64,000 nt of DNA from an uncultured Eubacteriales bacterium (GTDB lineage Bacteria > Bacillota > Clostridia > TANB77 > CAG-508): contig CASEIZ010000050.1 in NCBI GenBank assembly GCA_949288185.1, positions 35,020 through 99,019 on the forward strand, in the 5' to 3' direction. A model generated the notes under the pieces. That model was not told the origin of the DNA. It worked only from the letters and a program-made list of their open reading frames with translations, and made no database searches. The position numbers were made by a program, and so were the translations under genes. Of this stretch, positions 2,056 to 40,879 are shown one piece after another (positions within the stretch are counted from its first letter, which is position 1; every line of letters begins with the position of its first letter).

Positions 2056-2084
2056 TAGATTATAAAGAAATGAATATATAAAAA

Positions 2085-2118: not shown

Positions 2119-2124
2119 ACAACA

Positions 2125-4158: not shown

Positions 4159-4252
4159 TATTATTTTAAAGATATATGTTTTTATAAGATTAGCACGAAG
4201 ACCGTTGTAAAAAACATTATAAAGGCAAGAGAAATGAGGAGGAATGAAAAAT

Positions 4253-18800: not shown

Positions 18801-21800
18801 ATGTTTTAGAAATCGGAAAAAGAACATGGAAATTCTTTAAACAATATATCAATCAAGAAAATCATTATCTTGTGCCAGATAACTATCAAGAAGATAGAAA
18901 ACAAAAAATTGTGACAAGGACATCTTCAACAAATATAGGATTATCTATTTTGGCGATTGTTTCAAGCTATGACTTACAATATGAAGATTTACCAGACACC
19001 ATTGATTTATTGTATAAAGTGTTAACTTCAGTCGATAGTCTGCAAAAATGGAATGGACATTTATATAATTGGTATGATACCAAAACGAAAGAACCATTAA
19101 AACCAAGATATATATCAACAGTGGATAGTGGGAATTTTGTTGGATATTTGTATGTTACAAAAGCTTTTTTGGAAGAAATACAAGAAATGTTGCAAAATCA
19201 TGATAACTGGCATTTTGAACAAAGTATAGGACATGAGAAAAATAGAGAAGAATATGAGACAGCATCAAAAGGAAACACAGTATCAAAAGAAAACACAATA
19301 TCAAATGAACAAAGAAATGAACCAATAGAAACAAAAAGAAAAATAGATATAGAAAATGAAGAAGAAATGATAAGGTTACAAAATCAAATAAAAGAAATGC
19401 TAGAAATTATTGAAAGAATTATTGAGCAAACAGACTTTACCTATTTATATAGTCAAGAACATCAAATTTTTTCCATTGGATACAATATCGAAGAAAACAA
19501 ACTAACAGATTCCTATTATGACTTGTTAGCAACAGAAGCAAGACAAGCAAGTTTGGTTGCCATTGCGAAAAAAGATATTCCATCAAAACATTGGAACCAT
19601 TTAAGTAGAACATTAACGATTTTAGGAAAATATAAAGGATTGATTTCTTGGTCAGGAACAGCATTTGAATATTTAATGCCAAATATCAATATTCCCAAAT
19701 ACAAAGGTAGCCTATTAGATGAATCTTGTAAATTTATGATGATGAGTCAAATGAAATATGCAGAAGAAATGCATTTACCATTTGGTGTATCAGAAGCAGC
19801 ATTTAATTTAAAAGATTTACAATCTAATTATCAATATAAAGCATTTGGAATTCCATGGTTGGGATTAAAAAGAGGACTAGCAGATGAAATGGTCGTGTCA
19901 TCTTATGGTAGTATATTAGCCATTACAGATATTCCAAAAGAAGTTGTTAAAAACCTAAAAGTATTAGAACAATATGGGATGTATAACCAATATGGATTTT
20001 ACGAATCAATCGATTTTACACCAGAAAGAGTTAGAAAAGGAAAACAGGCAGAGGTTGTGAAGACCTATATGGCACATCATCAAGGATTAATTTTATTATC
20101 TATCAATAATTTAATCAATCAACTTATTTTGCAAAAACGATTTACAAAAAATCCAGAAATACAAGCAGTTACCATTTTGCTTCAAGAAACCATGCCAGAA
20201 AAAGCAATTATCACAAAAGAAGATAAAGAAAAGGTAGAAAAATTAAAATATAAAGATTATGAAGATTATATTGTAAGAACATATACCAAAATAGATGAAA
20301 GACTAATTTCAGGAAACGTCATTTCTAATGAAAATTATATGATAGCAATGAATCAAAAAGGAGAAGGTGTTAGTAAATATAAAAATATTTATATCAATCA
20401 TTTTAAACGTACAGATGATTATACACAAGGAATGATATTTTATATCAAAAGTATCAAAAACAAACAAATTATGAGTTCTAGTTATTCACAAAATATAAAA
20501 AATGAAAATCAATATCAAATTCGATTTATGCCAGATAAAAATGAACAAGAAATAGTGAGTGGAAACATAAAAACAACGATAAAAACAACAGTTGCCTCAA
20601 ATGAGCCAGTAGAATTAAGAAGAATCCTATTAGAAAATTTAGGAAATGAAGAAGAAATTGTAGAATTGACAGGATATTTTGAACCTATCTTGACACCAAA
20701 AGAACAATATTATGCACACCCAGCCTTTAATAATCTATTTTTGGTGTATGGATATGATGAAAAAAATGAAGCATTACTTGTCAAAAGAAAGAAAAGAGAA
20801 ATAGGGGAAAAAGAAGTTTATCTTGCAACAACATTACATGCAAGTAGAGAAGATAAAATTGGTGATTTGGAATATGAAATCGAAGAAGAGAAATTTAATG
20901 GAAGAGGAAATTTAAAAATACCAAAAATGGTAAAAGATTCCTTACCATTTTCTAAAAAAATAGGACTTGTGACAGAGCCAGTAATCGCCATGAAAAGAAC
21001 TATCAAAATAAAGAAACAGGAAAAAGTTATCATTGATTTTATATTATCTGTAGAAGAAGAAAAAGAACAAGTGATTCAAAACCTAGAAAAATATACATCA
21101 TTTGAAAATGTAAAAAATGAATTTGAATTGTCAAAAGCAAGAGTAGAAGCAGAAACGCGATATTTAAATATGAAGGGAAAAGACATTGAAATGTATCAAA
21201 AGATGTTATCTTATATTGTATTTGATAATTCTATGAAAAGTGTAGAAAAAGAGAAAATCCATCAAACACAAACTTATAAACAAAGTGATTTATGGAAATA
21301 TGGAATATCAGGAGACTTACCAATTGTGTTGGTAAAAATGAAAAATGCAAATGATGTGCAAGGGCTAAAAGAAGTATTAAAAGCTTATGAATATTTTAGA
21401 ACCAAAAATGTAGAAACAGAAATTGTCATTATGGATGAAGAAAAATATAGTTATGAAAATTATGTAAGAGAAGAAATTGATTCTACCATATTAAACCAGC
21501 ATATGGGATATTTAAAAAATATAAAGGGTGGTATTTTTATCTTAAATGAAGAGGAAATGGACAAAAAAGATAATACTTTTCTAGAATTTATATCTGTTAT
21601 CACAATTGATTGTGCAAAAGGAAATTTAGAAAACAATTTAAAAGAAATAGAAGAAACCTATTTAGAAAATTATAAAGAAATTAGTGAAGAAGAAAATGTA
21701 AATCAATTTGTTGAAGAAAATACAGAAGATGTGGATATTTTAAAAGATACAAAAGCTTTAAAATACTATAATGAATATGGGGCTTTTTCAGAAGATGGAA

Positions 21801-24334
21801 AAGAATATTGGATACGTGCCAATAAAGAAAATCGATTGCCAACAGTATGGTCACATATGATGGCCAATGAAAAATTTGGAACCATTGTCACAGAAAATAT
21901 GGGAGGATATAGTTGGTATAAAAATAGTCGATTAAATCGATTAACTAGTTGGAATAATAATCCAAGTTTTGATATTCCGTCAGAGGTTATCTATATAAAA
22001 GATATGGATACAAAGAAAAGCTGGTCTTTAGGATTAAACCCAATGCCAGATAATCGAAATTATAATGTTATCTATGGTTTTGGCTATTGCAAATATATCC
22101 ACAGCAATTTAGGAATTGTGCAAGAATTAGAAATGTTTGTTCCAAGAGAAGATAGTTGTAAAATTGGTATTTTAAATTTAAGTAATAAAACACCAAATCG
22201 AAAACATCTAAAATTATATTATTATATCAAACCAGTAATTGGAGAGGATGAATTCAAAACATCTGGTAATATTAGCATCAAATTTGATAGAAATAGTAAT
22301 ACGTTAACAGCATGTAATGTATATGCTAGTGAAATAGACAATACCAAATTATATGTGTCATCTAGTGAAAAAATAAAAAGCTATACAGGAGATAAAAAAT
22401 TTTTCTTAGGAAAAAATGGATTATCTAATCCAGATGGTATCAAGAAACTTAGATTAAATAATAGTAATGCAATTGGTAGAGATGCTTGTATCGTATTGGA
22501 AGTTGAAGTAGAAATTGAAAGTTTTTCAAATAAAGAAATTTCTTTTGTACTAGGGGCAGAAGAAACCAATATTGATTGTAAAAATATGTCATATAAATAT
22601 AGTAAATTACAGAATTGCAGGCAAGAGTTAGAACGTGTAAAAAATTATTGGAAAGACTTATTAGGAAAACTGCAAGTATATACCCCATTAGAATCAACCA
22701 ATATTTTATTAAATGGTTGGTGTATTTATCAAACATTAGAAAGTAGACTTTTAGGAAGAAGTGGATATTATCAATCAGGAGGTGCTTTTGGTTTTAGAGA
22801 CCAATTACAAGATACCATTGCTTTAAAATATACTTCACCAGAATTTTTGAAACAGCAAATTATCAAACATAGTAAACATCAATTTGAAGAAGGAGATGTA
22901 GAACATTGGTGGCATGAAGAAACGGGTAGAGGAATTCGAACAAGATTTTCAGATGATTTATTATGGTTACCATATCTTGTACTACAATATATCCATTTTA
23001 CAGGAAATACTAGTATTTTAGAAATGGAAACACCATATTTAAAAGGAGCAATCTTAGAAGAAGGTGTAGATGAAAGATATGACCAATATCCACAAAGTGA
23101 AAAACAAGAAAGTATTTATTTACATTGTATTAGAGCAATAGAAAAGAGTTTCAATTTTGGAGAAAATGGATTACCGAAAATTGGTAGTGGAGATTGGAAT
23201 GATGGATTTAGTACAGTAGGAAATAAAGGAAGAGGAGAAAGTGTTTGGCTAGGATTTTTCTTGTATACTATTTTAGATGATTTTATTCCGATATGTGAAA
23301 TGATGGAATCCAAAAAAGAACAATGTTTAGAAGAAAACTTTAGTTTAGAGGAAAATCAGCAAGAATTCAATCTTGTAAATAAACAAATCAATTTGGAGGA
23401 AAAAGAGACAGAAGGAAAAGAGCAAATTAACAGTATACACAAAGAAGAAATAGAAAATGAAAATAAATATGACGAAAAAGATGATGACAAAGAAGAGAAA
23501 AGCCGATTGGCAAAATGGAAAGAAATTAAAATTCAACTAAAAAAAGCATTAAATACAAATGGTTGGGATGGCAGATGGTATAAAAGAGCTTTTATGGATG
23601 ATGGAAATGTATTAGGTAGCATGGAAAATGATGAGTGTAGGATTGATAGTATTGCACAAAGTTGGAGTATTATATCAAAAGCAGGGGATAATGACAAAAA
23701 ATATATCTCGATGGAGAGCTTAGAAAATCATTTAGTGGATAAGGAAAATGGAATTATAAAATTATTAGACCCACCATTTGAAAAAGGACATTTAGAGCCA
23801 GGATATATCAAAGCTTATTTACCAGGTGTTAGAGAAAATGGAGGACAATATACACATAGCAGTTGCTGGGCAATTATTGCAGAAGCTTTGTTAGGATTTG
23901 GCGATAAAGCTTTAGAATTCTATCGAATGATTAATCCAATCGAGCATGCAAGGACAAAAGATGCTAGTAGTAAATATAAGGTAGAACCATATGCCATTGC
24001 AGCAGATATTTATGGAGCTGGCAATTTAGCAGGAAGAGGTGGTTGGACTTGGTATACTGGCTCAAGTAGTTGGTATTATATTGCAGGAATAGAATATATA
24101 TTAGGACTAAAAATAAAAGAAGGATATCTAACGATAGATCCATGTATTCCAAAAGATTGGAAGGAATATCTAATGAGATATAAATGGAAAGATAGTATTT
24201 ATAATATAAAAGTTATCAATACGAATCAAAAAAATACAGGAGTAGAAAAGGTATTATTGAATGGAGAAGAGGTTGAGAATAAGATTAAATTAGATGGAAG
24301 TAATAAAGTGTATAACATAGAAGTTTATATGTAA
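15818..24334 (+). CDS. cyclic beta-1,2-glucan synthase-like protein (GT84 glycosyltransferase + GH94 phosphorylase-like C-terminus)
   Basis: 2838 aa with several TM clusters. GT core motifs are VITLDADTEL and GMIQPRIG. GH94-type motifs are GSGDWNDGFS and GGWTWYTGSSSWYY. Size and architecture match Cgs/NdvB. Confidence 0.8.
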   Translation: MKTNKILKIDGTILDKKQLENHLQKIASNHNLINKPSKETYPIPQLMENYETIKIVYNLLNEHVKLGMTTHPAGEWLLDNFYIIEETVKQIQKELTLKKYMNFLGIANGKYKGFARIYVLAAEIVAYTDNKIQKEDLEDYLASYQEKKTLSMEEIWNIGLFLQIAIIENIREICEKIYSSQIQKMKAENIVQKLIETPQENKENHIYHLKNIKKDMLNDVKYPFIEYMSYILKRYGKKGYRYLKILDEIVEMTGTTVQEVIKKEHFDIAVKKVSIGNSITSIKTIQRINFLEIFEKINGVEEILKQDPADVYSKMDNETKESYRNIIKEISKKTKISEIYIAKKILQLAKENENIGKKAHIGYYIIDKGIEKIYQELQCKVPKHLHEKTKQKVYIATNIILSIIVSLVFSSILNVYIQNVGVYILSFLILLIPSSEIVTQIIQYMLSKIVKPKPIPKIDFSKGIDEENACMVVIPSILKNKEKVKELMHKLEVYYIANESKNLYFTLLGDCSESSIKEEKFDNEVIGTGTRLAENLNKKYATENDFPIFHFIYRKREWNEKENCYLGWERKRGMLTQFNEYLLENEENVFRANTIEAYKDCIPKIQYVITLDADTELILNSAFELVGAMAHILNKPVIDEERNIVIEGHGMIQPRIGINLDISYKTIFTQIFAGAGGIDSYTNAISDLYQDNFGEGIFTGKGIYDVKVFSRVLKNAIPENTVLSHDLLEGCYLRCGLATDIMLMDGYPTKYNSFMNRLSRWIRGDWQIISWLKDKIKSKVGNIQNPLNSLSKYKIFDNLRRSLIEIMVIISLILFVILGKVYHFETYPLIIISIIAVVMPYILEIFNTMLVKKEGEHKQKKFSPRISGYKGICLRIWITIGVLPYKAYVSCIAIIKTLYRKWVSHKKLLEWMTSEEAEKQAKNDVISYIKQMWFNIALGILTMGISFTNKGFGNFVIQMILGILWTVTPFIMWYISKEKKEIKAVETLDKAEIEYVLEIGKRTWKFFKQYINQENHYLVPDNYQEDRKQKIVTRTSSTNIGLSILAIVSSYDLQYEDLPDTIDLLYKVLTSVDSLQKWNGHLYNWYDTKTKEPLKPRYISTVDSGNFVGYLYVTKAFLEEIQEMLQNHDNWHFEQSIGHEKNREEYETASKGNTVSKENTISNEQRNEPIETKRKIDIENEEEMIRLQNQIKEMLEIIERIIEQTDFTYLYSQEHQIFSIGYNIEENKLTDSYYDLLATEARQASLVAIAKKDIPSKHWNHLSRTLTILGKYKGLISWSGTAFEYLMPNINIPKYKGSLLDESCKFMMMSQMKYAEEMHLPFGVSEAAFNLKDLQSNYQYKAFGIPWLGLKRGLADEMVVSSYGSILAITDIPKEVVKNLKVLEQYGMYNQYGFYESIDFTPERVRKGKQAEVVKTYMAHHQGLILLSINNLINQLILQKRFTKNPEIQAVTILLQETMPEKAIITKEDKEKVEKLKYKDYEDYIVRTYTKIDERLISGNVISNENYMIAMNQKGEGVSKYKNIYINHFKRTDDYTQGMIFYIKSIKNKQIMSSSYSQNIKNENQYQIRFMPDKNEQEIVSGNIKTTIKTTVASNEPVELRRILLENLGNEEEIVELTGYFEPILTPKEQYYAHPAFNNLFLVYGYDEKNEALLVKRKKREIGEKEVYLATTLHASREDKIGDLEYEIEEEKFNGRGNLKIPKMVKDSLPFSKKIGLVTEPVIAMKRTIKIKKQEKVIIDFILSVEEEKEQVIQNLEKYTSFENVKNEFELSKARVEAETRYLNMKGKDIEMYQKMLSYIVFDNSMKSVEKEKIHQTQTYKQSDLWKYGISGDLPIVLVKMKNANDVQGLKEVLKAYEYFRTKNVETEIVIMDEEKYSYENYVREEIDSTILNQHMGYLKNIKGGIFILNEEEMDKKDNTFLEFISVITIDCAKGNLENNLKEIEETYLENYKEISEEENVNQFVEENTEDVDILKDTKALKYYNEYGAFSEDGKEYWIRANKENRLPTVWSHMMANEKFGTIVTENMGGYSWYKNSRLNRLTSWNNNPSFDIPSEVIYIKDMDTKKSWSLGLNPMPDNRNYNVIYGFGYCKYIHSNLGIVQELEMFVPREDSCKIGILNLSNKTPNRKHLKLYYYIKPVIGEDEFKTSGNISIKFDRNSNTLTACNVYASEIDNTKLYVSSSEKIKSYTGDKKFFLGKNGLSNPDGIKKLRLNNSNAIGRDACIVLEVEVEIESFSNKEISFVLGAEETNIDCKNMSYKYSKLQNCRQELERVKNYWKDLLGKLQVYTPLESTNILLNGWCIYQTLESRLLGRSGYYQSGGAFGFRDQLQDTIALKYTSPEFLKQQIIKHSKHQFEEGDVEHWWHEETGRGIRTRFSDDLLWLPYLVLQYIHFTGNTSILEMETPYLKGAILEEGVDERYDQYPQSEKQESIYLHCIRAIEKSFNFGENGLPKIGSGDWNDGFSTVGNKGRGESVWLGFFLYTILDDFIPICEMMESKKEQCLEENFSLEENQQEFNLVNKQINLEEKETEGKEQINSIHKEEIENENKYDEKDDDKEEKSRLAKWKEIKIQLKKALNTNGWDGRWYKRAFMDDGNVLGSMENDECRIDSIAQSWSIISKAGDNDKKYISMESLENHLVDKENGIIKLLDPPFEKGHLEPGYIKAYLPGVRENGGQYTHSSCWAIIAEALLGFGDKALEFYRMINPIEHARTKDASSKYKVEPYAIAADIYGAGNLAGRGGWTWYTGSSSWYYIAGIEYILGLKIKEGYLTIDPCIPKDWKEYLMRYKWKDSIYNIKVINTNQKNTGVEKVLLNGEEVENKIKLDGSNKVYNIEVYM

Positions 24335-24445: not shown

Positions 24446-25126
24446 ATGGCAAAAATATTAGTGTTTAACAATGATACAGATAGAATGGAAACCTATTACA
24501 GGAATGAAGCTGACCCAATGCCATATAATACAAATGGAACATTAAGAGTAAGGGAATTTAGAGGTTCAAGCAAAAGTAATATACTATGGACAACAAAAAG
24601 AACTATGCAAAGCTGGAATAGTCAGAGATATATTTTTGGAGGACCAATACCGGTAGGATTTGCTTTTAAAAGACCATATGAAGGTGGACATGGAAATCAA
24701 AGTCAACATTATGCAGGAGTAGCCTTTGATGTTGGGCAAACTTTGTCAGCAGAGAGAAGAAGAGTTCTTTGGAATAGTGCCAATAATTCAGGGGTATGGA
24801 CATATGTAGAGCCAATTTCATTAACACCAACATGGGTACATTTTGATAAAAGATTCGGATCTCCTGCCTGCAGTACAGGTGGATTTCCACAACTAAAGAG
24901 GGGAAGTTTAAGCAATTATGTACTGATTGCACAAGATGATTTAAATACTTTGGGATATCGTACAAACGGATTAGATGGTATATTTGGACCAGCAACACAA
25001 AATGCGGTAAGAGAATATCAACGAACAAGAGGATTGGCTGTTGATGGAATTGTTGGTTGTAATACATGGCGTTCACTTCAAGAAGAAGTGGTAGGAGCAG
25101 GAGCAACAAGTACAACGATTAATTAA
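24446..25126 (+). CDS. cell-wall hydrolase: M15 (VanY-like) zinc peptidase domain + C-terminal PG_binding_1 domain
   Basis: SQHYAGVAFDV fits SxHxxGxAxD, and TWVHFD provides the second zinc ligand region. The C-terminus GLDGIFGPATQNAVREYQRTRGLAVDGIVG is a PG-binding repeat. No signal peptide was seen. Confidence 0.7.
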   Translation: MAKILVFNNDTDRMETYYRNEADPMPYNTNGTLRVREFRGSSKSNILWTTKRTMQSWNSQRYIFGGPIPVGFAFKRPYEGGHGNQSQHYAGVAFDVGQTLSAERRRVLWNSANNSGVWTYVEPISLTPTWVHFDKRFGSPACSTGGFPQLKRGSLSNYVLIAQDDLNTLGYRTNGLDGIFGPATQNAVREYQRTRGLAVDGIVGCNTWRSLQEEVVGAGATSTTIN

Positions 25127-25131
25127 TCATA

Positions 25132-25164
25132 AAAAGACTATTTCTAACAAAGAAATAGTCTTTT
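25132..25164 (+). terminator. terminator after the M15 hydrolase
   Basis: AAAAGACTATTTCT pairs with AGAAATAGTCTTTT. Confidence 0.7.
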
Positions 25165-25261
25165 ATCATATATGGAGAATTTTGTGATAATAGTCGTAAA
25201 TCAATTGACAAAAGAACAAAAGTTTGATAGTATGTAGCAAATAAATAGAGGTGAATTAAAA

Positions 25262-26074
25262 ATGAGCAAAAAAGATTTATATATAAGAAGTAGTAGTGCA
25301 GAATTTTTAATTTTTGAACAACAGAAAAAAGAGCAAGGAATTGAAGTGCGATTTGAAGATGGAGATTTATGGTTAACTCAAAAGGCGTTAGGAGAATTGT
25401 ATAATACATCAAAACAAGATATAAGTTATCATTTGAGTAATATCTTTAAGGAAATAGAATTGGAACAAAATTCAGTTGTCAAAAATTATTTGACAACTGC
25501 TTCAGATGGAAAAAAATATAAAACAAATTACTATAATTTAGATGCAGTAATTTCTGTTGGATATAGAGTAAATACAGATAGAGCAATTCAATTTAGAAGA
25601 TGGGCAACAAACGTATTAAAAGAGTTTTCAAAAAAAGGATATATTATTGATAAAAATCATGAGATAAAAGAAAATGGAGCTAGAGGATTAGAAGAATTAT
25701 TTAACGAACTAGAAACTGATGAAAGAACAAATGGTGCAACTGCTCCAAATTTTGCACATAGATTAGATAGAATTACAGATAGAAATTTACATTTTGCAAG
25801 ACGAAACCATTCTTTAACAGATTATTATATAAGTATGCAAAATATAATTCCATCTAGAGACAAAGCGATGTTATTATTAATGGGAATAGAGGCATATTAT
25901 AATTGTGTAGGACAACAAAATAAAGAATTTGCTAGTAAACTAGAAGAGAAAATCAGTCAAATTCTTGACGATTATGAAATAAAAAAGATTTCTTCAAGAA
26001 ATGATGTTGCACACCAATCTATAACAAGTGAAAGTACGGAACTTAATATTAGTGATGATACCGATTCGAGATAA
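25262..26074 (+). CDS. RhuM-family protein (N-terminal RhuM core, divergent C-terminus)
   Basis: The motif series FEDGDLWLTQKALGELY, YYNLDAVISVGYRVNTDRAIQFRRWATNVLKEF is typical of RhuM. Confidence 0.7.
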   Translation: MSKKDLYIRSSSAEFLIFEQQKKEQGIEVRFEDGDLWLTQKALGELYNTSKQDISYHLSNIFKEIELEQNSVVKNYLTTASDGKKYKTNYYNLDAVISVGYRVNTDRAIQFRRWATNVLKEFSKKGYIIDKNHEIKENGARGLEELFNELETDERTNGATAPNFAHRLDRITDRNLHFARRNHSLTDYYISMQNIIPSRDKAMLLLMGIEAYYNCVGQQNKEFASKLEEKISQILDDYEIKKISSRNDVAHQSITSESTELNISDDTDSR

Positions 26075-26797: not shown

Positions 26798-27223
26798 TTG
26801 CTAATTGGTGAATATGAGCATTCTCTAGACGCTAAAGGCAGATTGATTATGCCAGTAAAATTAAGACAAGATATGGGAGAAAAGTTCATCGTAACAAAAG
26901 GGTTAGATGGATGTCTATTTGCTTTTTCACAAGAAGAATGGTTAAACTTTGAAACAAAACTAAAAGCATTACCTCTTTCAGATAGAAATGCCAGAAACTT
27001 TGTAAGATTTTTCTTATCAGGAGCAACAGAATGCGAGATAGACAAACAAGGAAGATTTTTAATACCAAATAACTTAAGAAATGCAGCAAATCTAGAAAAA
27101 GAAGTGGTTATTATTGGTGTTGGAACAAGACTAGAAATATGGGATAAAAGCATTTGGGAAAAATGCGATGAAGATATATCAGCAGATGAAATTGCCGAAA
27201 ATATGGCAAATCTAGGTATATAA
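26798..27223 (+). CDS. mraZ: division/cell wall cluster transcriptional regulator MraZ
   Basis: TTG start. [18 protein letters not shown] and [12 protein letters not shown] are the two SpoVT-AbrB (DxxxR-type) repeats. Confidence 0.9.
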
Positions 27224-27557: not shown

Positions 27558-28487
27558 TTGAAATTTGAGCATAAACCAGTCATGCTCCAAGAATGTATAG
27601 AAGGATTACAAATAAAATCAAATGGGATTTATATAGATGGCACTATGGGAGGAGCAGGACATAGCATAGAAATTGTAAAAAGATTGTCAAGTGATGGAAG
27701 ATTAATTGGTATTGACAGAGATGAAGAAGCTTTAAAAGCTTCAAAAGAAAGACTAGCAGAATATAAAAATGTAACATATATCCATGATAATCATGACAAT
27801 ATAAAAGAAATATTACAAAAGCTTGGAATCAATCAAGTGGATGGAATTTTATTAGATTTAGGTGTTTCTTCATATCAATTAGATGAAAGAAATAGAGGAT
27901 TTAGCTATTTAGGAGAAAATGAACTAGATATGAGAATGGATAAAAGCCAAGACTTAACAGCCAAAAGAGTTGTCAATTATTATTCTGAAAAAGAGTTAGC
28001 AAATATCATTTATGAATATGGAGAAGAACGATTTTCAAGACAAATTGCTAAAAATATTTGTAATTACAGAAAAGAAAAGACAATTAACACAACAAAGGAA
28101 TTGGTAGATATTATTGAAAAATCCATTCCAAAGTCAAAACAAAATGATGGGCATCCGGCCAAAAGAACATTTCAAGCAATTAGAATAGAAGTGAATAATG
28201 AAATTAAACCATTATATACTACAGTAAAAGATTGCATTGATTGTTTAAAACCACAAGGAAGACTATGTATTATTACATTTCATTCATTAGAAGATAGAGC
28301 AGTCAAAAATGCTTACATAGAAGCAAAAGGAAAATGTACTTGCCCGAGTGATTTACCATATTGTGTATGTGGAGCAAAAACATTAGGAAAAATCATTACC
28401 AAAAAACCAATCATTGCAACAAAAGAAGAGCAAGAAGAAAATTCTAGAAGTAAAAGTGCAAAATTAAGAATTTTCGAGAAGATATAA
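27558..28487 (+). CDS. rsmH: 16S rRNA (cytosine1402-N4)-methyltransferase RsmH
   Basis: TTG start after AAGAGGTG. Motifs [16 protein letters not shown] and [12 protein letters not shown]. Confidence 0.9.
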
Positions 28488-28519: not shown

Positions 28520-29017
28520 ATGGCAACGAGATATCAATATGAGACAAGTCCAAGAAAATTAGAACCAGATATTAAAAAAGAAAAGAAAAAACAAAATATT
28601 AAAGTTGTAAAAGACTTGCCAAAACAAGATGTCAAGCTATCAAAAGAACAAAAGAAAAAACATAGAAAAGCAACTTTGTTAGTTATGGCTATATTTGCTG
28701 TACTATTTACCATAAGTTATCGAAATACTCAAATCAATGAAAAGTTTAGTGAAATACAGAGTTTAAGAACAGAGCTATCTTCGTTACAAAAAGAAAATGA
28801 ACAATTACAAGTAACGATAGAAAATAGTTTAAATTTAAGTAATATAGAAAAACAAGCAAAAGAAAAATTAGGTATGCAAAAATTAACGAATAAACAAACT
28901 GTATATGTTAGTTTACCAAAGAAAGATTATATAGAATCTGCAACAGAAAAAGTAGAGATTAGTGATACGAATGAAAATTGGTTTCAAAAATTGGTAGATA
29001 AGATTTTTAATAGATAA
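28520..29017 (+). CDS. ftsL: cell division protein FtsL-like (bitopic, coiled coil)
   Basis: Position after rsmH, a basic N-terminus, one TM helix (ATLLVMAIFAVLFTISY) and a coiled-coil ectodomain. Confidence 0.7.
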   Translation: MATRYQYETSPRKLEPDIKKEKKKQNIKVVKDLPKQDVKLSKEQKKKHRKATLLVMAIFAVLFTISYRNTQINEKFSEIQSLRTELSSLQKENEQLQVTIENSLNLSNIEKQAKEKLGMQKLTNKQTVYVSLPKKDYIESATEKVEISDTNENWFQKLVDKIFNR

Positions 29018-29226: not shown

Positions 29227-30897
29227 ATGCCAAAAAGAAAATTAAAATTAGAAGAAGCAAAAGAAGAATTAGGTTTTGATAAAATGTTTTACAATGGATA
29301 TAATAAGTTTAATATTGTACATTCGGGTAAATATCGTTCTGGTATTACACTTGAAATACCACAGGAATGGTATTTAAATAAGGATAAAAAACCAATAAAT
29401 CCTATTAATTACAGAGAAGTTAGAGAATTAACAGATGGAATGAATATAGATTTTGATGGGGAAGCAAGTGTACTCTTAGGTAAGTATCGTTTGAGTAAAA
29501 ACGGAAGGCCTGTATTTGAGATAACAGAACCCAAAGAAGCTAAAGATACAATGATTTTGGTTTCGTGGGGTGGAGCATTTAATAAAACACGTGGACAAAC
29601 GAGTTCTTATGCAAAAGAAACTGGTGCGAAATTTTTTACGAAAAGCTCTAGTAATGGTGGAGGCATGGGAGCTGATTATTGGATACTTCCAGTTGGATTT
29701 GTAAAAGATAGAGAAGAAAGAGATGTGACTGATATTTTAGAAAGGCTTCAAAAAGAAGATGACGAAAAAAATTCTGAAATAGATCAATACCTTGAAATAC
29801 AAGAAAAAGAGAGACAAGAATCAATAAAAAATAAAGATAGAATTGTAGAAATGGTAAAACCAATAGTTGAAGATATAAAAAAATATAATCTAGATTTTGA
29901 ATTTTTTGTAGGGGATGAAGAGTGCCAATATCATATAACAGGATATACTTATAAAAAAAGAAGATATAAGGATTCTTTAGTAGAAGAATTAACACAAATT
30001 TTACAAGAAGAGAAAGACAAGAAAGAAAAAAAGGATGAATTTATACCACAATATAGAGAACTAGAAGAACTTATAAAAGATACAGAACTATCTATAATTT
30101 ATATAGATAACGGAATACAGATAAAAGCCCCAAATAGTATATATAATTATAGAACATATCCATATAGTCAAGAAGGATTTAATACATGTGTAAAATATAT
30201 AAAGGATTATAAAGAAAAAATACGACAAGAACAAGAAAAAGCAAGACTTGAAATGGAAAAACTAAAACAAGAAAAAGAGTTAAAAGAAAAAAAGGCGGAT
30301 GCCAAAGAGAAGGGATATCCTACAATTTTTAAGTTCAAAAACAGAATTGGAGGAAAAACGGGCTTATCACATGCTTTTGTAATAGAGAAAGATGGAATGA
30401 TAAGAGAGCCTGATCATAATGAGTTAAGAAATTCAAATCATAGATATCATTATAATTGGAAAAATAATGCTGATGGAATACAAGAATATCAACAAATACT
30501 TCCAGGAGAAATTATAGTTTCATATACTAAAGAAGTAACAGCAACACCATATGTATTAAATGTAGAATGGGCTGATGGAAAAGCAAGTAAAGAACAATTA
30601 GAAAATATATGTGAAGCACTGGAAAGAACAGAATCATTTGCAGTAGATAGTGATGGAAATTATATAACTTCAATAAAAGAATGGGCACAAAAAGCTATAG
30701 AATTAAAATCAAGGGAATGTAGACAAAAATTGAATATAGAAGAAATAGAAGAAAATGATGAATTTTTAGATAATATTGTAGAAAGCGCAAGAAAAAAATT
30801 AGAGTTAAAAGGAAAATCTGCTGAAGCTACAGAATTAGCACAGAAATATGAAGAACAAACGCAACAAACAGAAGGTCCTAATATGGATGGTGATTAA
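29227..30897 (+). CDS. hypothetical protein (556 aa): two globular ends joined by an E/K coiled coil
   Basis: RBS AAGGGGG. No recognisable motifs. Confidence 0.7.
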   Translation: MPKRKLKLEEAKEELGFDKMFYNGYNKFNIVHSGKYRSGITLEIPQEWYLNKDKKPINPINYREVRELTDGMNIDFDGEASVLLGKYRLSKNGRPVFEITEPKEAKDTMILVSWGGAFNKTRGQTSSYAKETGAKFFTKSSSNGGGMGADYWILPVGFVKDREERDVTDILERLQKEDDEKNSEIDQYLEIQEKERQESIKNKDRIVEMVKPIVEDIKKYNLDFEFFVGDEECQYHITGYTYKKRRYKDSLVEELTQILQEEKDKKEKKDEFIPQYRELEELIKDTELSIIYIDNGIQIKAPNSIYNYRTYPYSQEGFNTCVKYIKDYKEKIRQEQEKARLEMEKLKQEKELKEKKADAKEKGYPTIFKFKNRIGGKTGLSHAFVIEKDGMIREPDHNELRNSNHRYHYNWKNNADGIQEYQQILPGEIIVSYTKEVTATPYVLNVEWADGKASKEQLENICEALERTESFAVDSDGNYITSIKEWAQKAIELKSRECRQKLNIEEIEENDEFLDNIVESARKKLELKGKSAEATELAQKYEEQTQQTEGPNMDGD

Positions 30898-30899
30898 AT

Positions 30900-31196
30900 A
30901 TGGAGATTAGCATGGTAGAGATAGAAAATAATCAAAAAGAGAAACATGATAATTTTTTAAAAATGCTTAAAGTTGAAGAAGATCAAGAACTGAAACAATT
31001 GATTAAAATTCAAGAAGAATTAGAAAGAATAGGAATTAATAAAAAAAATGTCCAAGAATTGACGAAAAGTTTATCTGAAGAGCAAAAACAAAGACTTGAA
31101 AAGTTATATAAAGAGCAAATAAAAAAACTTGAAGAAGATATAACAAACAAAAAAAATAAAATAATTGAAATAAGAAAAAAAATAGTAAAAAATTAA
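30900..31196 (+). CDS. hypothetical small coiled-coil protein (98 aa)
   Basis: The start lies 2 nt after the upstream stop, with RBS GGATGGTGA. The sequence is heptad-like and E/K/L-rich. Confidence 0.6.
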   Translation: MEISMVEIENNQKEKHDNFLKMLKVEEDQELKQLIKIQEELERIGINKKNVQELTKSLSEEQKQRLEKLYKEQIKKLEEDITNKKNKIIEIRKKIVKN

Positions 31197-31277
31197 GTGG
31201 AAAGAGAATGAAATTATATAAAAAATCTTAAAATAAAGTTACTAAATAAGCAAATCATAAAAAGGAGAGGATTAAAT

Positions 31278-32711
31278 ATGGAAAGTAAAAAATTAAAAGG
31301 ATACCAAGGATTGTTTTTAGATGAAAAAACACAGGAAAAATTAGTTGAATTGCAAAAAAATGGACTTAGTGATATAACAAAAGATATGCATATCACTTTT
31401 AAATTTGGAGAAACAGAACAATATCCAGAAGAATTAATTGGAAAAGAATTTAATGTTAAAATTATTGGATATGCTTCTGATGGAAAAAATAGTGGATTTC
31501 AAGTGGAACTACCAGAAGAATTAAAACCATATTATAAAAATCAAAATGGACCACATATAACAGTTTCATTAGGTGAAGTGGATGGAATAAAAGGTAAAGC
31601 AGTGGATACAGGCACTTTAAATTTTGAACCAATTGAAGAACCATTTGAAATATCAAGTAAGCTAGGATATTTTGTATATGGTAAAGGAAAGGTTATGGAC
31701 AATAGTATTTTTGATAAGATGAAAGAAGAACAGTCAAAAGCAAAAGCTGAAGAATATATAAAAATCGTAAAAGAAAAATTAGAAGAAACCAAAACAGTAG
31801 TAACACATTTTGGAGATGACTTAGATAATAAATCAGCAATATATGCAATAGAAAAATGGGCTAAAGAACAAGGAATATTAAAGGAAGATGAAAGCTTGCA
31901 AGTAGATAGAGTGCCAGCAGGAAAGATAAAAGAAGGAATGTTAAATGTGGATACAGGAGGACACAAAGGAAGTAGACAAGAAGATGGAACAATCGTAATA
32001 GATGGAGATCCAGCAAATGGAGTAAAATCAGCATCAGAAGAATTAAATAACTTAGGATTTTATGTACCAGAACAAATCGTAGAATTAGCAGATACAGTAC
32101 CAAATAAAGTAAGTGCATTAGATAGTAGAAGTGGACTAGCTCTAATTAGATACTTATCAGGAGAGCAAGCATTTAAATTGGCAGAAGCAAGATTGTTAGA
32201 TAAATCTCTAACAGATGAACAAATAAGAGAATTTGGATTAGAAGAAGCACATGAAAAACAACAAGGCATTATTGATAATGCAGTAGAAAAAATCGAAAAA
32301 TACACAAAAGAGTTACCAAACGGAAAAAAAATTGTATTAGCACCAGAACAAATCATTGCAGGATCTATGATAGCATATGAAAAAGGAATACCATATTATG
32401 CATCAGCATCTAATCATTTAGATAAAGACAAAAATGTAGATGGCGTAACATTTGCCATCACAAGCAAGCCAGGAACAAAACTACCAGAAGAAATATTAGA
32501 ATATGGAAAAGAGTTAGTAGAACAATATAGAATAGATGAAAATACATCAGGTGTATTTGTCAATCCAAATGGACAAATGGTGGTAGCAGGAGGATTTAAG
32601 AACCCAACATTTAAAATACCAAATGAAACCATAGAAGGTATGTTAAATAAAATTGAAGCGAAATTTATGGGAAAAGATTTAGAAAAAGAAGAAAATCAAG
32701 AAGAGTATTAA
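31278..32711 (+). CDS. fusion protein: 2H-phosphoesterase-like N-domain + degenerate DHH/DHHA1-like domain
   Basis: RBS AAAAGGAGAGG. There are two HxT motifs (MHITFKFG, PHITVSLG). These are followed by THFGDDLDNKSAIYAI (DHH motif I-like), LNVDTGGH (motif II-like), IVIDGDP in place of DHH, and VAGGFKNP in place of GGGH. Confidence 0.55.
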   Translation: MESKKLKGYQGLFLDEKTQEKLVELQKNGLSDITKDMHITFKFGETEQYPEELIGKEFNVKIIGYASDGKNSGFQVELPEELKPYYKNQNGPHITVSLGEVDGIKGKAVDTGTLNFEPIEEPFEISSKLGYFVYGKGKVMDNSIFDKMKEEQSKAKAEEYIKIVKEKLEETKTVVTHFGDDLDNKSAIYAIEKWAKEQGILKEDESLQVDRVPAGKIKEGMLNVDTGGHKGSRQEDGTIVIDGDPANGVKSASEELNNLGFYVPEQIVELADTVPNKVSALDSRSGLALIRYLSGEQAFKLAEARLLDKSLTDEQIREFGLEEAHEKQQGIIDNAVEKIEKYTKELPNGKKIVLAPEQIIAGSMIAYEKGIPYYASASNHLDKDKNVDGVTFAITSKPGTKLPEEILEYGKELVEQYRIDENTSGVFVNPNGQMVVAGGFKNPTFKIPNETIEGMLNKIEAKFMGKDLEKEENQEEY

Positions 32712-32804
32712 AAGAAATAAGAGAAAATTTTGTCTATTCTGTTAATATAGAATAGTAGGAAAAATTCTATAGATTGAAGAATTGAGAAGGGAAAGAGATT
32801 ACTT

Positions 32805-33599
32805 ATGAGAACAATTCAAACAAATGATATTTTAAAAAATAAATATAGTATAGTAAATAACGAAGTGGTAGAAACAGAAAACGGAGAATATTATAATCAG
32901 CAGATAGCAAAACAAATCATGATAAGTGAACAACAAAACAAGATAGATTCTGCAAAACAATTAAAAGAAATGGATAAAAAACAAAAACAAAATGCTGTAA
33001 AAAAAATTTGTATAGATAAATATAGTGAAGCAAAATCAGAAAATACAGATATTAATATTTGGGAAAAAGAACCCCAAAAAGAGTATGAAATATATAGATT
33101 AAAGCTTGATACAGAAGAATTAATGTTAATCAATACAAAATATCTTCCAGATAGCAAAGAAAAAGAAGTGTATTATGACAAAAATATTGCTATGAAAATT
33201 TATGATAATATGTTTCAGTTAGATCAAAATATAGAAAATAGTTTTCCGGAATTAATGGAAATGTGTCAAGGAGAAATTGCTGAAATACAAGAAACAATTC
33301 ATAAATTAAAAAAAGAAGATGAAGAGAAGTACAAGGAAGCAGTAAATACTTATCGTACTATATATGATTCAGGAATTTTAGAAACGATGAAAAATAATTT
33401 TAAGCAAATAAAAACAGAAAAGGATAATTTGAAACAGCAATTAGAAAAATCAAATCACATTATTCAAGACCTATCTAAAAAATTGCAAGTGGCATTGAAT
33501 AAAGTTGAAGAATTGCAAAATCAAAAATTTGGATTTTGGAGTCGTATTTTTAGTAGATTAAAAACCAAAAGGTTGAATGAGAAAAATAATAATTATTAG
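32805..33599 (+). CDS. hypothetical coiled-coil protein with C-terminal amphipathic helix
   Basis: Long E/K/Q coiled-coil stretches with the terminal segment KFGFWSRIFSRLKTKRL. Confidence 0.6.
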   Translation: MRTIQTNDILKNKYSIVNNEVVETENGEYYNQQIAKQIMISEQQNKIDSAKQLKEMDKKQKQNAVKKICIDKYSEAKSENTDINIWEKEPQKEYEIYRLKLDTEELMLINTKYLPDSKEKEVYYDKNIAMKIYDNMFQLDQNIENSFPELMEMCQGEIAEIQETIHKLKKEDEEKYKEAVNTYRTIYDSGILETMKNNFKQIKTEKDNLKQQLEKSNHIIQDLSKKLQVALNKVEELQNQKFGFWSRIFSRLKTKRLNEKNNNY

Positions 33600-33687: not shown

Positions 33688-33722
33688 AAACACCTCTAAT
33701 ACATATTATTAGAGGTGTTTTT
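33688..33722 (+). terminator. terminator-like hairpin whose 3' arm contains the SD of the downstream PBP gene
   Basis: CACCTCTAAT (33691-33700) pairs with ATTAGAGGTG (33708-33717). T5 (33718-33722) directly abuts the ATG at 33723. Confidence 0.65.
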
Positions 33723-35714
33723 ATGAATGAAATCAAATTATCAGGCAAGAAAAAAATGAAAAATATTTTATTTATATCTTTTTTAATCATCATATGTTTA
33801 ATTGTAAGACTAGGATATATACAATTAATACAAGGAAAGGAATTAGCAAAATTAGCCTATGAACAACAAACATTAGACAGAAAGATTAATCCCAAAAGAG
33901 GAACCATTTATGATGCTACAGGAAAAAATATATTAGCCGTTAGTAGTACAGTAGAAACAGTTACAGTTAATCCGAGCAATATTTCAGCTGAAAACAAAGA
34001 AAAAGTTGCCAAAGCTTTGTCAGATATATTTGAACTGGATTATGAAACCGTATTAAAAAAAGTAAAGAAAAGAAGTTCTATTGAAACCATTGTGAAAAAA
34101 GTCGAAAAGGAAAAAACAGATGAATTAAGAAAATGGATAGAAGAAAATAATATGACAAGTGGAATTAATATTGATGAAGATACAAAAAGATATTATCCAT
34201 ATAACAATTTTGCATCACAAATTATAGGATTTTGTGGAAGTGATAATCAAGGATTAGATGGAATAGAAGCAAAATATGAAGAAGAACTAAAAGGAGAGCA
34301 AGGAGCAATTCAAAAACATACAGATGCCAAAGGAGGAGAGATTGGAGAAGAAGGAGAAAATTACGTGCCTGCTATAGATGGAAATGATTTAGTATTAACA
34401 ATTGATTTAACCATTCAATCCATAGTGGAAAAATATTTAGAAGAAGCTTGTATTGACAATGTTTGTACAGATGGTGGAAGTGTTATTGTCATGAATCCAC
34501 AAAATGGAGATATTTTAGCTATGGCCAATTATCCAAGCTATAACTTAAATGAGCCATATGAACCATATACAGAAGAATTAAAAACAACATGGGATTCTCT
34601 AGAACAAGCAGAAAAAACGACGTATTTACAAGCGGTTTGGAGAAATAAAGCCATTGCAGACACCTATGAACCAGGTTCTGTATTTAAGTTAATTACAGCT
34701 TCTGCTGCATTGGAAGAAGGCATCACAGACACAGATAATGAAGGAGAATTTTCTTGTACAGGTGGAATTGAAGTAGCAGGTGTTAGAATAAAATGTTGGA
34801 GATATTATAGACCACATGGTTCAGAGAGTTTAAGGCAAGGATTAATGAATTCATGTAATCCAGTTTTTATTGGATTAGGACAAAAAATAGGAGTAACAAA
34901 ATATTATGAATATTTGGAAAAATTTAAGTTATTACAAACAACAGGAATTGATTTACCAGGAGAAGCTGGAAGTATATTTTTAGCTAAAGAAAAAGCAGGA
35001 CCAGTCGAATTAGCAACTATCAGTTTTGGTCAAAGATTTGAAATTACGCCAATTCAATTAGCAACAGCAGTATCTAGCATTGCTAATGGAGGAACCAGTA
35101 TAAAACCAAGAGTGGTAAAACAAATCATTGATAGTGAAACAAAAGAAGTAACAGACATTCCAGTAGAAAAGGGAGATATGGTTATTTCAAAAGAAACCTC
35201 TGAAAAAGTATTAAGTATGATGGAAAGTGTTGTATCAGAAGGTACTGGCAAAAATGCAAAAGTGGCAGGATATAGAATTGGAGGAAAAACAGGAACCTCA
35301 GAAGATGGTGTTAATACAAATAAATATGTAACATCTTTTTGTGGAGTCGCACCAATTGATAATCCACAAGTAGTGGTATTGGTTACTTTATATAATCCAA
35401 CAGGTGAAGGGGGACACCAAGGAGGAGGGGTGGCAGCACCAGTGGGCGGACAGATATTTAGTGAAATATTACCATATTTGGAAGTAAATAAAGAAATATT
35501 AGAAGAAGATGAGGAAGAAATCATTAATCAAATACAGGTACCAGATATTATGGGGAAAACATTAGAAGAAGCAAAGCAGATTTTAAAAGAGAATAATTTA
35601 GAAATGTATTTAGAAAATGAAGAAGTTGATATGGAAAATACTTATGTAAAAAATCAAATTCCAAGTAGTGGGATAACCGTTAATGAACAAAGTAAAGTGG
35701 TGATAGAATATTAA
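33723..35714 (+). CDS. class B penicillin-binding protein (FtsI/PBP2B/SpoVD family), one PASTA domain
   Basis: N-terminal TM helix, the SVFK, SCN and KTGTS motifs, and C-terminal PASTA (IQVPDIMGKTLEEAKQIL...). Confidence 0.9.
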   Translation: MNEIKLSGKKKMKNILFISFLIIICLIVRLGYIQLIQGKELAKLAYEQQTLDRKINPKRGTIYDATGKNILAVSSTVETVTVNPSNISAENKEKVAKALSDIFELDYETVLKKVKKRSSIETIVKKVEKEKTDELRKWIEENNMTSGINIDEDTKRYYPYNNFASQIIGFCGSDNQGLDGIEAKYEEELKGEQGAIQKHTDAKGGEIGEEGENYVPAIDGNDLVLTIDLTIQSIVEKYLEEACIDNVCTDGGSVIVMNPQNGDILAMANYPSYNLNEPYEPYTEELKTTWDSLEQAEKTTYLQAVWRNKAIADTYEPGSVFKLITASAALEEGITDTDNEGEFSCTGGIEVAGVRIKCWRYYRPHGSESLRQGLMNSCNPVFIGLGQKIGVTKYYEYLEKFKLLQTTGIDLPGEAGSIFLAKEKAGPVELATISFGQRFEITPIQLATAVSSIANGGTSIKPRVVKQIIDSETKEVTDIPVEKGDMVISKETSEKVLSMMESVVSEGTGKNAKVAGYRIGGKTGTSEDGVNTNKYVTSFCGVAPIDNPQVVVLVTLYNPTGEGGHQGGGVAAPVGGQIFSEILPYLEVNKEILEEDEEEIINQIQVPDIMGKTLEEAKQILKENNLEMYLENEEVDMENTYVKNQIPSSGITVNEQSKVVIEY

Positions 35715-39535: not shown

Positions 39536-39738
39536 ATGTCCAATTGGGGACGTTTCTGTTTGGGGCATTTTTATGTAAAGTTATGTTCCTATATGAACTT
39601 TAAATTTTAGAAACAGTATTCCAAATTCAAAATTACAATTATACAAATTTTTGAAGATATAAAACTTACACAAAATGTTTCCAATAAGTATAAATTTACA
39701 TAAAAATGTCCCAAACAGAAACGTCCCCAATTGGACAT
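39536..39738. repeat. 203-bp palindromic element with 44-nt near-perfect arms between ftsW and murG
   Basis: ATGTCCAATTGGGGACGTTTCTGTTTGGGGCATTTTTATGTAAA pairs with TTTACATAAAAATGTCCCAAACAGAAACGTCCCCAATTGGACAT, with one indel. The interior is AT-rich. Confidence 0.85.
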
Positions 39739-39756
39739 CAGAAAGGAAAGAAGAAA

Positions 39757-40879
39757 ATGAAGGTAGTTATTGCAGCAGCAGGAACAGCAGGTCACATCAA
39801 TCCAGGATTAGCGATAGCAAAAAAAATACAAGAAGAACAAAAAGACTCTAAAATTATTTTTATAGGAACAACAAGAGGATTGGAAAATGATTTGGTTCCA
39901 AGAGCTGGATATGAATTAAAAACAATTGATGCATATGGATTAAGTAAAAAAATATCTATTGAAAATATGAAAAAAATGATAAAAACATTAAAAGGATTCG
40001 GAGAAGCAAAAAAAATATTAAAAGAAATCAATCCAGATGTTGTTATAGGTACTGGAGGATATATTTGTGGTGCAACCATTTCAGCAGCACATCGATTGAA
40101 AATTCCAACAGTATTACATGAAAGTAATGCTTTCCCAGGAAAAGCAGTAAAAATGCTAGCCAAAAAAACAGATACCATTTTAGTATCTTTTGAAGATGCG
40201 ATTGGAAGAATAAAACATGCAAAAAAAATTGTATATACAGGAACACCTGTAAAAATAAAAAAACAAAATTATTCAGAAGAACAAAAAGACGAGATTATCA
40301 AAAAAATCCGGATTAAAAAAAGATATGCCAATTGCGTTAGTATTTGGAGGAAGTCAAGGAGCAAGAAGAATTAATCAAGCGATAATGGAAATGATAAAAT
40401 CAGAGTCAAATAAAAATTATCAAATGATTTGGGCAACAGGACCAAAACAGTATGATATTGTAAAAGAAGAATTAGAAAATGAGCATAAAAATATTAACCA
40501 TATAAAAAATATGAAAATTTTTCCATATATATATAATATGGAGGAAATTATGAATATTGTAGATGTCATTGTAGCAAGAAGTGGAGCAATGACCATTACA
40601 GAAATTGCAAAGGTAGGAAAACCATCGATATTGGTGCCATTACCAAATGTCAGTCATGATCATCAATTATATAATGCAAAAGTATTACAAAATATAGATG
40701 CAGCAGATATTATATTAGATAATGAATTAGATGGAAAAAAATTAAATGCAAATATAGAAAAAATTGTATTAGACAAAAATAGGTGCCAAAAAATGGGCGA
40801 AAAAGCATTAACAGTTGCGACTGATGATGTAGAAAATAAAATATATGAGCAAGTTGTAGAAACTATAAGAAAACAATAG
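39757..40879 (+). CDS. murG: UDP-N-acetylglucosamine--N-acetylmuramyl-(pentapeptide) pyrophosphoryl-undecaprenol GlcNAc transferase, interrupted by a +1 frameshift in an A7 run (40300-40306)
   Basis: N-terminal part is MKVVIAAAGTAGHINPGLAIA. Removing one A restores IKKSGLKKDMPIALVFGGSQGARRINQ, which continues into the second ORF (40325..40879). Confidence 0.85.

Follow-up and report, generated by a model that had tools for sequence, protein, structure and literature searches.

A 477-amino-acid (aa) protein encoded in the genome of an uncultured Eubacteriales bacterium (bird-gut Clostridia) is predicted to fuse a 2H phosphoesterase domain to a DHH/DHHA1-like domain that has lost the D-H-H signature of its superfamily. 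The gene lies in a stretch of 64,000 nt (contig CASEIZ010000050.1, positions 35,020-99,019), here called the window, to which coordinates refer unless another locus is named. By fold, the two halves belong to the 2H and DHH/DHHA1 superfamilies; by sequence, they belong to no described family of either. The reading favoured here, with a probability of roughly 0.4, is that of a two-headed phosphoesterase with both heads active; such a protein would most likely degrade 2',3'-cyclic-phosphate or short or cyclic oligonucleotides. The features of the protein are as follows.

31278..32711, plus strand: open reading frame (ORF) of the 2H + DHH/DHHA1-like protein, 477 aa, from the ORF list; order 2H, linker, DHH-like, helical linker, DHHA1-like
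31278..31715, plus strand: predicted 2H phosphoesterase domain, aa 1-146 (AlphaFold2 predicted local distance difference test score, pLDDT, 93.7; Foldseek matches CNPase, RICH and LigT)
31389..31397, plus strand: HxT motif 1, H38-I-T40 (H38 and T40 conserved to at least 90% among 62 homologues; at the beginning of modelled strand E38-45)
31554..31562, plus strand: HxT motif 2, H93-I-T95 (invariant in the 62 homologues; within strand E93-98 of the model)
31716..31787, plus strand: charged helical linker, aa 147-170, poorly conserved
31788..32132, plus strand: predicted DHH-like catalytic subdomain, aa 171-285 (AlphaFold2 pLDDT 93.8; Foldseek matches NrnA, RecJ and GAN)
31806..31829, plus strand: motif I equivalent H177-F-G-D-D181-L-D183-N184, conserved, aligned to NrnA H18...D24-P-D26
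31944..31970, plus strand: motif II equivalent, D225 and a family-specific T-G-G-H229 loop, invariant among close homologues
32001..32012, plus strand: motif III position, D242-G243-D244-P245 in place of D-H-H-P, aligned to NrnA D102-H-H-P; distant relatives have D-H-H
32088..32096, plus strand: probable motif IV, A271-D272-T273, at a helix end, placed by model topology
32133..32303, plus strand: helical linker between the subdomains, aa 286-342 (model helices at 141-196 of a 331-residue construct starting at residue 147)
32304..32669, plus strand: predicted DHHA1-like subdomain, aa 343-464 (from the model; Foldseek matches span both subdomains of NrnA and RecJ)
32442..32471, plus strand: strand G-V-T-F-A-I-T-S-K-P, the probable equivalent of NrnA R-x-R-x-R-S-K-G with the arginines lost (from low-stringency hhalign and family conservation)
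32586..32606, plus strand: A-G438-G439-F-K441-N442-P443 in place of the DHHA1 G-G-G-H, aligned to NrnA GGGH

The N-terminal domain

Members of the 2H superfamily open 2',3'-cyclic phosphates or cleave 2'-5' phosphodiesters. Their two H-x-[TS]-x motifs are present in the N-terminal domain as H38-I-T40-F and H93-I-T95-V. The original prediction, made by eye from the DNA, had taken them for the hallmark of the superfamily, and rightly so, since they are conserved in the 62 homologues and the modelled fold matches CNPase, RICH and LigT. When the model was compared by Foldseek with solved structures, the top 49 matches consisted of 48 chains of the CNPase catalytic domain and of goldfish RICH, followed by Escherichia coli LigT at rank 50. 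E-values start at 3e-4 for CNPase (probability 1.00, TMq ~0.62) and range from 3e-4 to 2e-2 for the three proteins together, with probabilities of 0.99-1.00. Matches among viral models include the CPDase part of a giant-virus RNA ligase, the torovirus and coronavirus 2H domains, and rotavirus VP3; Acb1 comes at rank 24 among them (E-value 0.07, TMq 0.49). By modelled fold and both catalytic motifs, the domain is thus predicted to be a 2H phosphoesterase.

The C-terminal domain

The C-terminal domain (residues ~171-464; AlphaFold2 pLDDT 93.8) finds the DHH superfamily in nearly all of its 30 top Foldseek matches. Bacillus NrnA (E-value 1.9e-4, probability 0.99), RecJ, archaeal GAN/RecJ-Cdc45, the PF0399 DHH protein, Cdc45 and family II pyrophosphatase are among the best. 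TM-scores are low, at 0.3-0.4, which is to be expected if two hinged subdomains are superposed as one body. Strands and helices of the model follow one another as in the DHH topology, every motif falling at the C-terminal end of its strand or helix, and the model supports a DHH + linker + DHHA1 fold. Both folds had been guessed by eye, a guess borne out by the AlphaFold2 models and Foldseek, and as model-based predictions the fold assignments of the two halves are solid.

Motifs were mapped by hhalign of the family profile against NrnA (PDB 5J21), two staphylococcal homologues and TmPDE. In a relaxed, non-significant yet collinear alignment to NrnA, H177...D181-x-D183 pairs with H18...D24-x-D26, D225-T with D80-T, I-D242-G-D-P with I-D102-H-H-P, A-G-G-F-K with G-G-G-H-P, and T-F-A-I-T-S-K-P-G with R-V-R-F-R-S-K-G-P. 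The equivalence of D272 with NrnA D156 comes from topology only, hhalign having paired NrnA GDTGRF with LDSRSG (aa 281-286) instead. The DxD of motif I (D181-L-D183) and the motif II aspartate D225 are found, and D-H-H, GGGH and RxRxR are not. The same mapping of motifs I and II, of D-H-H onto D242-G-D and of GGGH onto GGF had been made earlier by eye; it is reproduced by the low-stringency profile alignment and anchored by the D-H-H relatives described below.

Among 60 close homologues of the C-terminal domain, D183, N184, N223, D225, G227, H229, G231, D242, G243, P245, G438, N442 and P443 are invariant, and H177, D181, D272, G439 and K441 are at least 90% conserved. Across 80 diverse aligned members, the counts are 76/79 for D183, 74/79 for D225, 73/80 (91%) for D272, 73/73 for G438, 69/73 for G439 and 72/74 for K441. 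The strings first picked out in the translation are all present where they had been placed, namely MHITFKFG (aa 37-44) and PHITVSLG (aa 92-99) in the N-terminal domain, and THFGDDLDNKSAIYAI (aa 176-191), NVDTGGH (aa 223-229), IDGDP (aa 241-245) and AGGFKNP (aa 437-443) in the C-terminal one; their conservation in the 62 and 60 homologues, respectively, goes beyond chance.

Exchange of active-site histidines within the family

When 1.84 billion representative proteins were scanned in full with HMMER, the family came to 109 clusters only; the active-site columns were compared across 182 aligned members. All 132 members with D-G-[DNEGK] at motif III, the 477-aa protein among them, also have the histidine of the D-T-G-G-H loop. 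A true D-H-H at motif III, without the loop histidine, characterizes 17 distant clusters. In a further 17 clusters, mostly of 700-880 aa, the motifs have degenerated, to Q/N/D at motif I and to N-A-[DN] at motif III. The two histidine arrangements never occur in one member, and both are lacking in only two.

The D-H-H clusters anchor the motif equivalence, since these distant relatives carry the signature at the very motif III column; the profile of six of them aligns to NrnA best at exactly motif III (pairwise P = 0.0045). The family ancestor thus appears to have had the D-H-H signature. As the loss of the motif III histidines is exactly matched by the gain of the loop histidine, the comparison suggests that in the branch of the 477-aa protein the histidine function moved rather than vanished, which would leave a rewired site instead of a dead one. 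An 'altered or binding-only' domain had been proposed initially; altered it seems to be, and binding-only is the less likely of the two, because the acidic metal ligands and the covarying histidine are conserved.

Two independent modules

A search of 5.8 billion proteins resolves the 477-aa protein into two independent modules. Residues ~160-470 are 50-88% identical to many proteins with wholly different N-termini or none, and the C-terminal domain also occurs alone as a protein of 320-360 aa. The module of residues 1-146 is likewise found by itself, in proteins of 145-156 aa, and one such protein occurs on 326 contigs. In relatives whose N-termini differ, homology breaks off at about aa 160-170. 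The C-terminal domain is the constant module, found with at least 27 unrelated N-terminal heads that include DUF4116 repeats, one GNAT, one HipA-like kinase region and numerous small domains of unknown kind. Of the 128 head-bearing members, 11 have the 2H head.

Orthologues 90-100% identical to the whole protein occur on many gut-metagenome contigs. Compared with the orthologue of locus L008 (88-90% identity), the ratio of non-synonymous to synonymous substitution rates (dN/dS) is 0.14 overall, 0.09 for the N-terminal domain, 0.10 for the C-terminal domain and 0.46 for the linker; both domains are under purifying selection.

The family is tiny and almost confined to uncultured gut Clostridia. 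It was found in 17 of 185,579 GTDB genomes (one per species), comprising 16 gut metagenome-assembled genomes (MAGs) of uncultured Clostridia, Eubacteriales or Clostridium and one Methanolobus MAG. For neither domain was a relative found in 50,697 phage records or 72,556 plasmids (both by tblastn) or in IMG/VR, a distribution that lends no support to the analogy to phage Acb1 drawn at the outset.

Searches with sequence profiles gave a uniform result. The protein has no credible match in Pfam, NCBIfam, PHROGs, PADLOC or PDB sequences (phmmer/hmmsearch against PDB). For the N-terminal domain, neither the protein nor any of its 62 homologues matched Pfam or NCBIfam at E ≤ 1 (LigT_PEase, 2_5_RNA_ligase2, CPDase, CNPase etc.). 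For the C-terminal domain, no match to Pfam DHH/DHHA1 or to a PDB DHH sequence was obtained with the protein, with 51 distant relatives or with the D-H-H-bearing relatives. Of the two kinds of check proposed with the original prediction, the structural one agrees with 2H and DHH folds, whereas the Pfam 2H, DHH and DHHA1 profiles stay silent. A full-text literature search found no description of a 2H-DHH fusion; a jumbo-phage paper treats both domains separately.

Setting of the gene in the window

The gene is located within the cell-division (dcw) cluster, where four unannotated ORFs are inserted between an ftsL/divIC-like gene and the gene of a class B penicillin-binding protein (PBP). Features of this region are given below.

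26798-27223: mraZ, first in order in the dcw cluster
27558-28487: rsmH, dcw cluster
28520-29017: ftsL/divIC-like gene, dcw cluster, precedes the insert
29227-30897, 30900-31196, 31278-32711 and 32805-33599: the four unannotated ORFs of the insert
29227..30897, plus strand: 556-aa ORF upstream of the others, with which the insert apparently begins, domains not recognisable, from the ORF list
30900..31196, plus strand: small coiled-coil ORF, 98 aa, whose family adjoins C-domain genes in 5/21 loci (neighbour clustering)
31264..31270, plus strand: strong ribosome-binding site GGAGAGG, 7 nt before the ATG, read from the sequence
32805..33599, plus strand: downstream partner ORF, 264 aa, coiled coil and C-terminal amphipathic helix, conserved, partner family in 5/21 loci
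33688..33720, no strand: hairpin, perfect over 14 bp with T runs on either side, closing the insert directly before the PBP start codon (terminator scan)
33723-35714: class B PBP gene, then murE, mraY and ftsW

Beyond this hairpin, the promoter and terminator scan gave nothing informative. The G+C content is 26-34% over the window and ~28% around the ORF, the ORF itself having the same G+C content as its flanks, and the GC skew is steadily positive. Near-identical DNA occurs in chicken, bird and other gut metagenomes. In metatranscriptomes, a few low-depth contigs match the gene without mismatch; this is weak evidence for transcription, DNA carry-over or cross-mapping from paralogues being possible.

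The 556-aa ORF (29227..30897) found no match in the family libraries; its only matches, to designed TPR proteins, were low-complexity, compositionally biased ones. Elsewhere in the window, a 2838-aa ORF (15818-24334) with GH94 catalytic, supersandwich and glucoamylase-like domains is a giant glycan phosphorylase or cyclic-glucan-synthase-like protein; a role as conflict protein was ruled out for this unrelated GH94-type glycan enzyme. Just upstream of mraZ, at 24446-26074, lie a PG_binding_1 protein and a RhuM-family protein. The murG gene (39706-40879) seems split by a frameshift, ORF 39706-40374 covering the GT28 N-terminal domain and the overlapping ORF 40325-40879 beginning at '..LVFGGSQGA'; the split reflects either an assembly error or a pseudogene.

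Neighbourhoods in related genomes

Neighbours of C-domain genes were counted across 21 loci. The block 31207-33592, which holds the 477-aa ORF and the 264-aa ORF, has 88% DNA identity to loci L008, L011 and L013, in which the two-gene unit is located between dnaB/LysR genes and rpoB; the unit therefore occupies differing chromosomal sites in related genomes. LysR-type regulators are near C-domain genes in 8/21 loci. An AAA-Csx3 protein of 426-502 aa occurs in 5/21 loci (PADLOC Csx3 3e-49 and AAA-Csx3 5e-46; Pfam Cas_csx3 2.4e-5). In L008, the locus of the closest orthologue, the gene is three genes downstream of AAA-Csx3, with an HD-domain protein encoded just upstream of the AAA-Csx3 gene; this HD-domain neighbour belongs to one locus family. 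Other recurrent neighbours are further C-domain paralogues with differing heads, several per locus, and small coiled-coil proteins. The stand-alone 2H gene directly follows a LysR gene and is near a 143-aa protein, both of neighbour families shared with the C-domain loci, and near an HD_4 protein.

Relatives with D-H-H are found in other surroundings. One adjoins genes for a type IV secretion system (T4SS) coupling protein, RecU and HNH; one, in Thermoanaerobacter sp. RKWS2, is near ParB and Rpn genes; and one lies among RRXRR, ThaI and DUF5983 genes. These regions look like mobile elements. In the Methanolobus MAG (L028, 5752-9415), Cas6 (PADLOC 1e-69) is encoded directly upstream of a 295-aa C-domain homologue. 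This homologue overlaps a 680-aa ORF of unknown kind, and genes for an AAA ATPase and for a reverse transcriptase of the group II intron type lie close by.

A 24-mer repeat scan detected no CRISPR array in the window or in any fetched locus, including the 10-kb L028 contig. No cas10 was seen among the 25 listed of 191 PADLOC families in the pooled scan of the loci, and CorA likewise was not seen. Genes for Csx3, LysR and the fam2 small-protein family (143-184 aa) are all absent from the window.

Several further observations concern the loci themselves. An amphipathic helix, G-F-W-x-K-I-x-x-x-F-K-K-I-F, recurs at one protein end in three small neighbour families that are not related to each other (window 30900-31196 and 32805-33599; L003 4939-5370; L008 7512-7979; L015 9922-10320); the helix may be a membrane-targeting or docking peptide. 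A stand-alone C-domain island (L001 4893-10324; the same in L019) is flanked on one side by a 156-aa Peptidase_S11 fragment and on the other by a complete Peptidase_S11 gene of 408 aa, and looks as if inserted with duplication of the 5' end of its target gene. An 844-aa member with degenerate motifs (L033 1898-14502) is found among GNAT genes, a GNAT-APH/kinase fusion, a NADase_transloc-domain protein, LysR, and unknown proteins of 701 and 971 aa, in a region resembling a conflict-system island. Near the stand-alone 2H gene of L003, a giant DEAD/ResIII helicase protein (160-4938; ~1400-2030 aa depending on the assembly) may be the source of the single 'RTasHel' match in the pooled PADLOC scan, which does not name the protein.

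Proposed function and alternatives

In the two-headed reading, the 2H head would open 2',3'-cyclic phosphates or cut 2'-5' bonds, and the DHH/DHHA1 body would hydrolyse the resulting short or cyclic oligonucleotides, so that the heads jointly take nucleotide-derived molecules down to mononucleotides. For the C-terminal domain, we infer a rewired yet metal-dependent active site with a changed substrate pocket: H177, D181, D183, D225, D242, D272 and H229 would build a two-metal site, and K441-N442, from the K-N-P triplet after GG, a rebuilt phosphate pocket. Candidate substrates would be short RNA fragments with 2',3'-cyclic phosphate ends, and linear or cyclic messengers of the oligoadenylate type, such as the ring-nuclease products A2>P and A2-P. 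The latter idea comes from the Csx3 neighbour: Csx3 cleaves cyclic tetra-adenylate (cA4) to A2-P with some A2>P (PMC7371418). DHH-family enzymes are known to break down cA4, with a link to type III CRISPR CorA (PMC8284326), and to be required partners in SAM-AMP signalling (PMC10600005). The gene would be part of a small accessory gene network that diversifies fast in uncultured gut Clostridia and in which C-domain genes often lie beside those of LysR, AAA-Csx3 and HD proteins.

A number of points weigh against two active heads. No sequence profile ties either domain to its superfamily, the folds being supported by structure only, and hhalign of the whole family with NrnA/TmPDE is not significant (P = 0.2). 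To judge from the alignments, the canonical DHH essentials are gone, namely both histidines of motif III, that of GGGH and the arginines of RxRxR. The histidine covariation may reflect a single ancestral event and is suggestive, no proof. The degenerate subgroup indicates that the fold can probably persist without catalysis. Lastly, no Csx3, LysR, HD, cas or CBASS (cyclic-oligonucleotide-based anti-phage signalling system) gene is near the 477-aa ORF in the window.

These losses, and the 17-cluster subgroup with fully degenerate motifs, speak for a reading in which only the 2H head is enzymatic and the DHH/DHHA1-like body non-catalytic, as in Cdc45 or in the DHHA1-type C-terminal domain of AlaRS. 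The body might then have a nucleotide, an RNA or a shared protein partner as its ligand and act as an unchanging adaptor that brings many heads to the same place. The presence of one C-terminal domain under at least 27 unrelated heads and that of Cdc45 and GAN among its fold matches agree with this alternative, which is doubtful but the strongest of the rivals. Opposed to it are the (near-)invariance, in close homologues, of all acidic metal-ligand positions and of two histidines, the matched loss and gain of histidine, as expected of a working metal site and not of a relic, and the existence of the domain on its own.

The other two explanations are less well supported than either of these readings. 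The protein could be a counter-defence enzyme of a mobile element that, like Acb1 or viral ring nucleases, destroys cyclic-nucleotide immune signals of a recipient or host. The mobile-element-like regions around the D-H-H relatives, the differing chromosomal sites of the two-gene unit and the 2H fold shared with Acb1 would fit, but the absence of relatives from the phage, plasmid and IMG/VR collections, the low rank of Acb1, the G+C content equal to that of the flanks, and a site between ftsL and the PBP gene that adjoins neither integrase nor transfer nor phage genes make this improbable. Least probable is a housekeeping role, as nanoRNase or in the healing of RNA ends, in a lineage without standard NrnA/Orn, with the 2H domain clearing 2',3'-cyclic ends: the best fold matches (NrnA, CNPase/LigT), the site inside the dcw cluster and purifying selection would suit such a role, but the family is in only 17 species genomes, has several paralogues with differing heads per locus, varies in genomic position and has not retained the substrate-binding residues of NrnA.

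It is tempting to go further than a two-headed phosphoesterase and to propose a new catalytic variant of the DHH fold, with the metal- and phosphate-binding histidine moved from motif III to the D-T-G-G-H loop and the DHHA1 pocket rebuilt for another substrate. The domain would be the core of an undescribed, LysR-regulated nucleotide-messenger network that is independent of CRISPR arrays and includes AAA-Csx3, with swappable heads (2H, GNAT, kinase-like, DUF4116 and ~20 unknown) setting input or substrate specificity. This extended proposal is speculative and, taken as a whole, unlikely.

Significance

Enzymes of the DHH/DHHA1 type control c-di-AMP, pGpG/pApA, nanoRNA, pAp and type III CRISPR messengers, and to our knowledge the D-H-H motif is regarded as essential throughout. 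A conserved branch that has replaced D-H-H, has kept the acidic ligands and still has living D-H-H relatives would offer a natural experiment in the rewiring of an active site and would widen the sequence space in which DHH-type phosphodiesterases are sought. The motif comparison suggests such rewiring as an attractive, testable idea. Models of Pfam, NCBIfam and PADLOC miss the whole C-domain family and the associated 2H family. The 2H fusion and the AAA-Csx3 link together lead to another testable idea, namely a full breakdown of 2',3'-cyclic-phosphate-terminated or cyclic oligoadenylates. The host organisms are abundant in bird and human guts; we know of no cultured representative and of no study of their nucleotide signalling.

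Comparison with known systems

The N-terminal domain shares with the 2H proteins (CNPase, RICH, LigT, viral NS2/VP3 and Acb1) two H-hydrophobic-T-hydrophobic motifs on strands and a pseudo-symmetric alpha+beta fold. It is smaller, at ~145 aa against 170-215 aa for its matches, is 11-16% identical to the PDB matches and is missed by the Pfam 2H models. It is encoded on a bacterial chromosome, not by a virus. Acb1, the phage anti-CBASS 2H enzyme, is a phage product; the 477-aa protein is neither phage-encoded nor a close structural match to it.

Cdc45 and archaeal GAN, RecJ-like proteins of which some are inactive, have kept the DHH fold and lost the catalytic motifs. Both are among the fold matches of the C-terminal domain, whose family instead keeps all acidic ligands, gains a histidine and has no replication context. 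With the CRISPR-associated DHH nucleases (Sulfolobus MAD; NrN beside or fused to CorA), the likeness is that of a DHH-family enzyme in a nucleotide-messenger context (PMC8284326, PMC10600005), given here by AAA-Csx3 in 5/21 loci and Cas6 beside the archaeal homologue. Sulfolobus MAD and NrN are canonical DHH proteins (D85/H86/H87 in NrN) encoded in cas10 loci, whereas the 477-aa protein has neither D-H-H nor a transmembrane segment.

The closest parallel is with phosphoesterases of the NrnA/TmPDE/GdpP type (PDB 5J21, 5IZO, 5O1U), which have the same two-subdomain DHH + DHHA1 fold of ~300 aa. Collinear with theirs are motif I (H...DxD), the motif II aspartate followed by threonine, the motif III aspartate and the GG of GGGH. 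The C-terminal domain differs by D-G-D in place of D-H-H, GGF-K-N-P in place of GGGH and T-x-A-x-T in place of RxRxR, and is set further apart by an extra invariant histidine, in the T-G-G-H loop after motif II, and by its fusion to a 2H domain.

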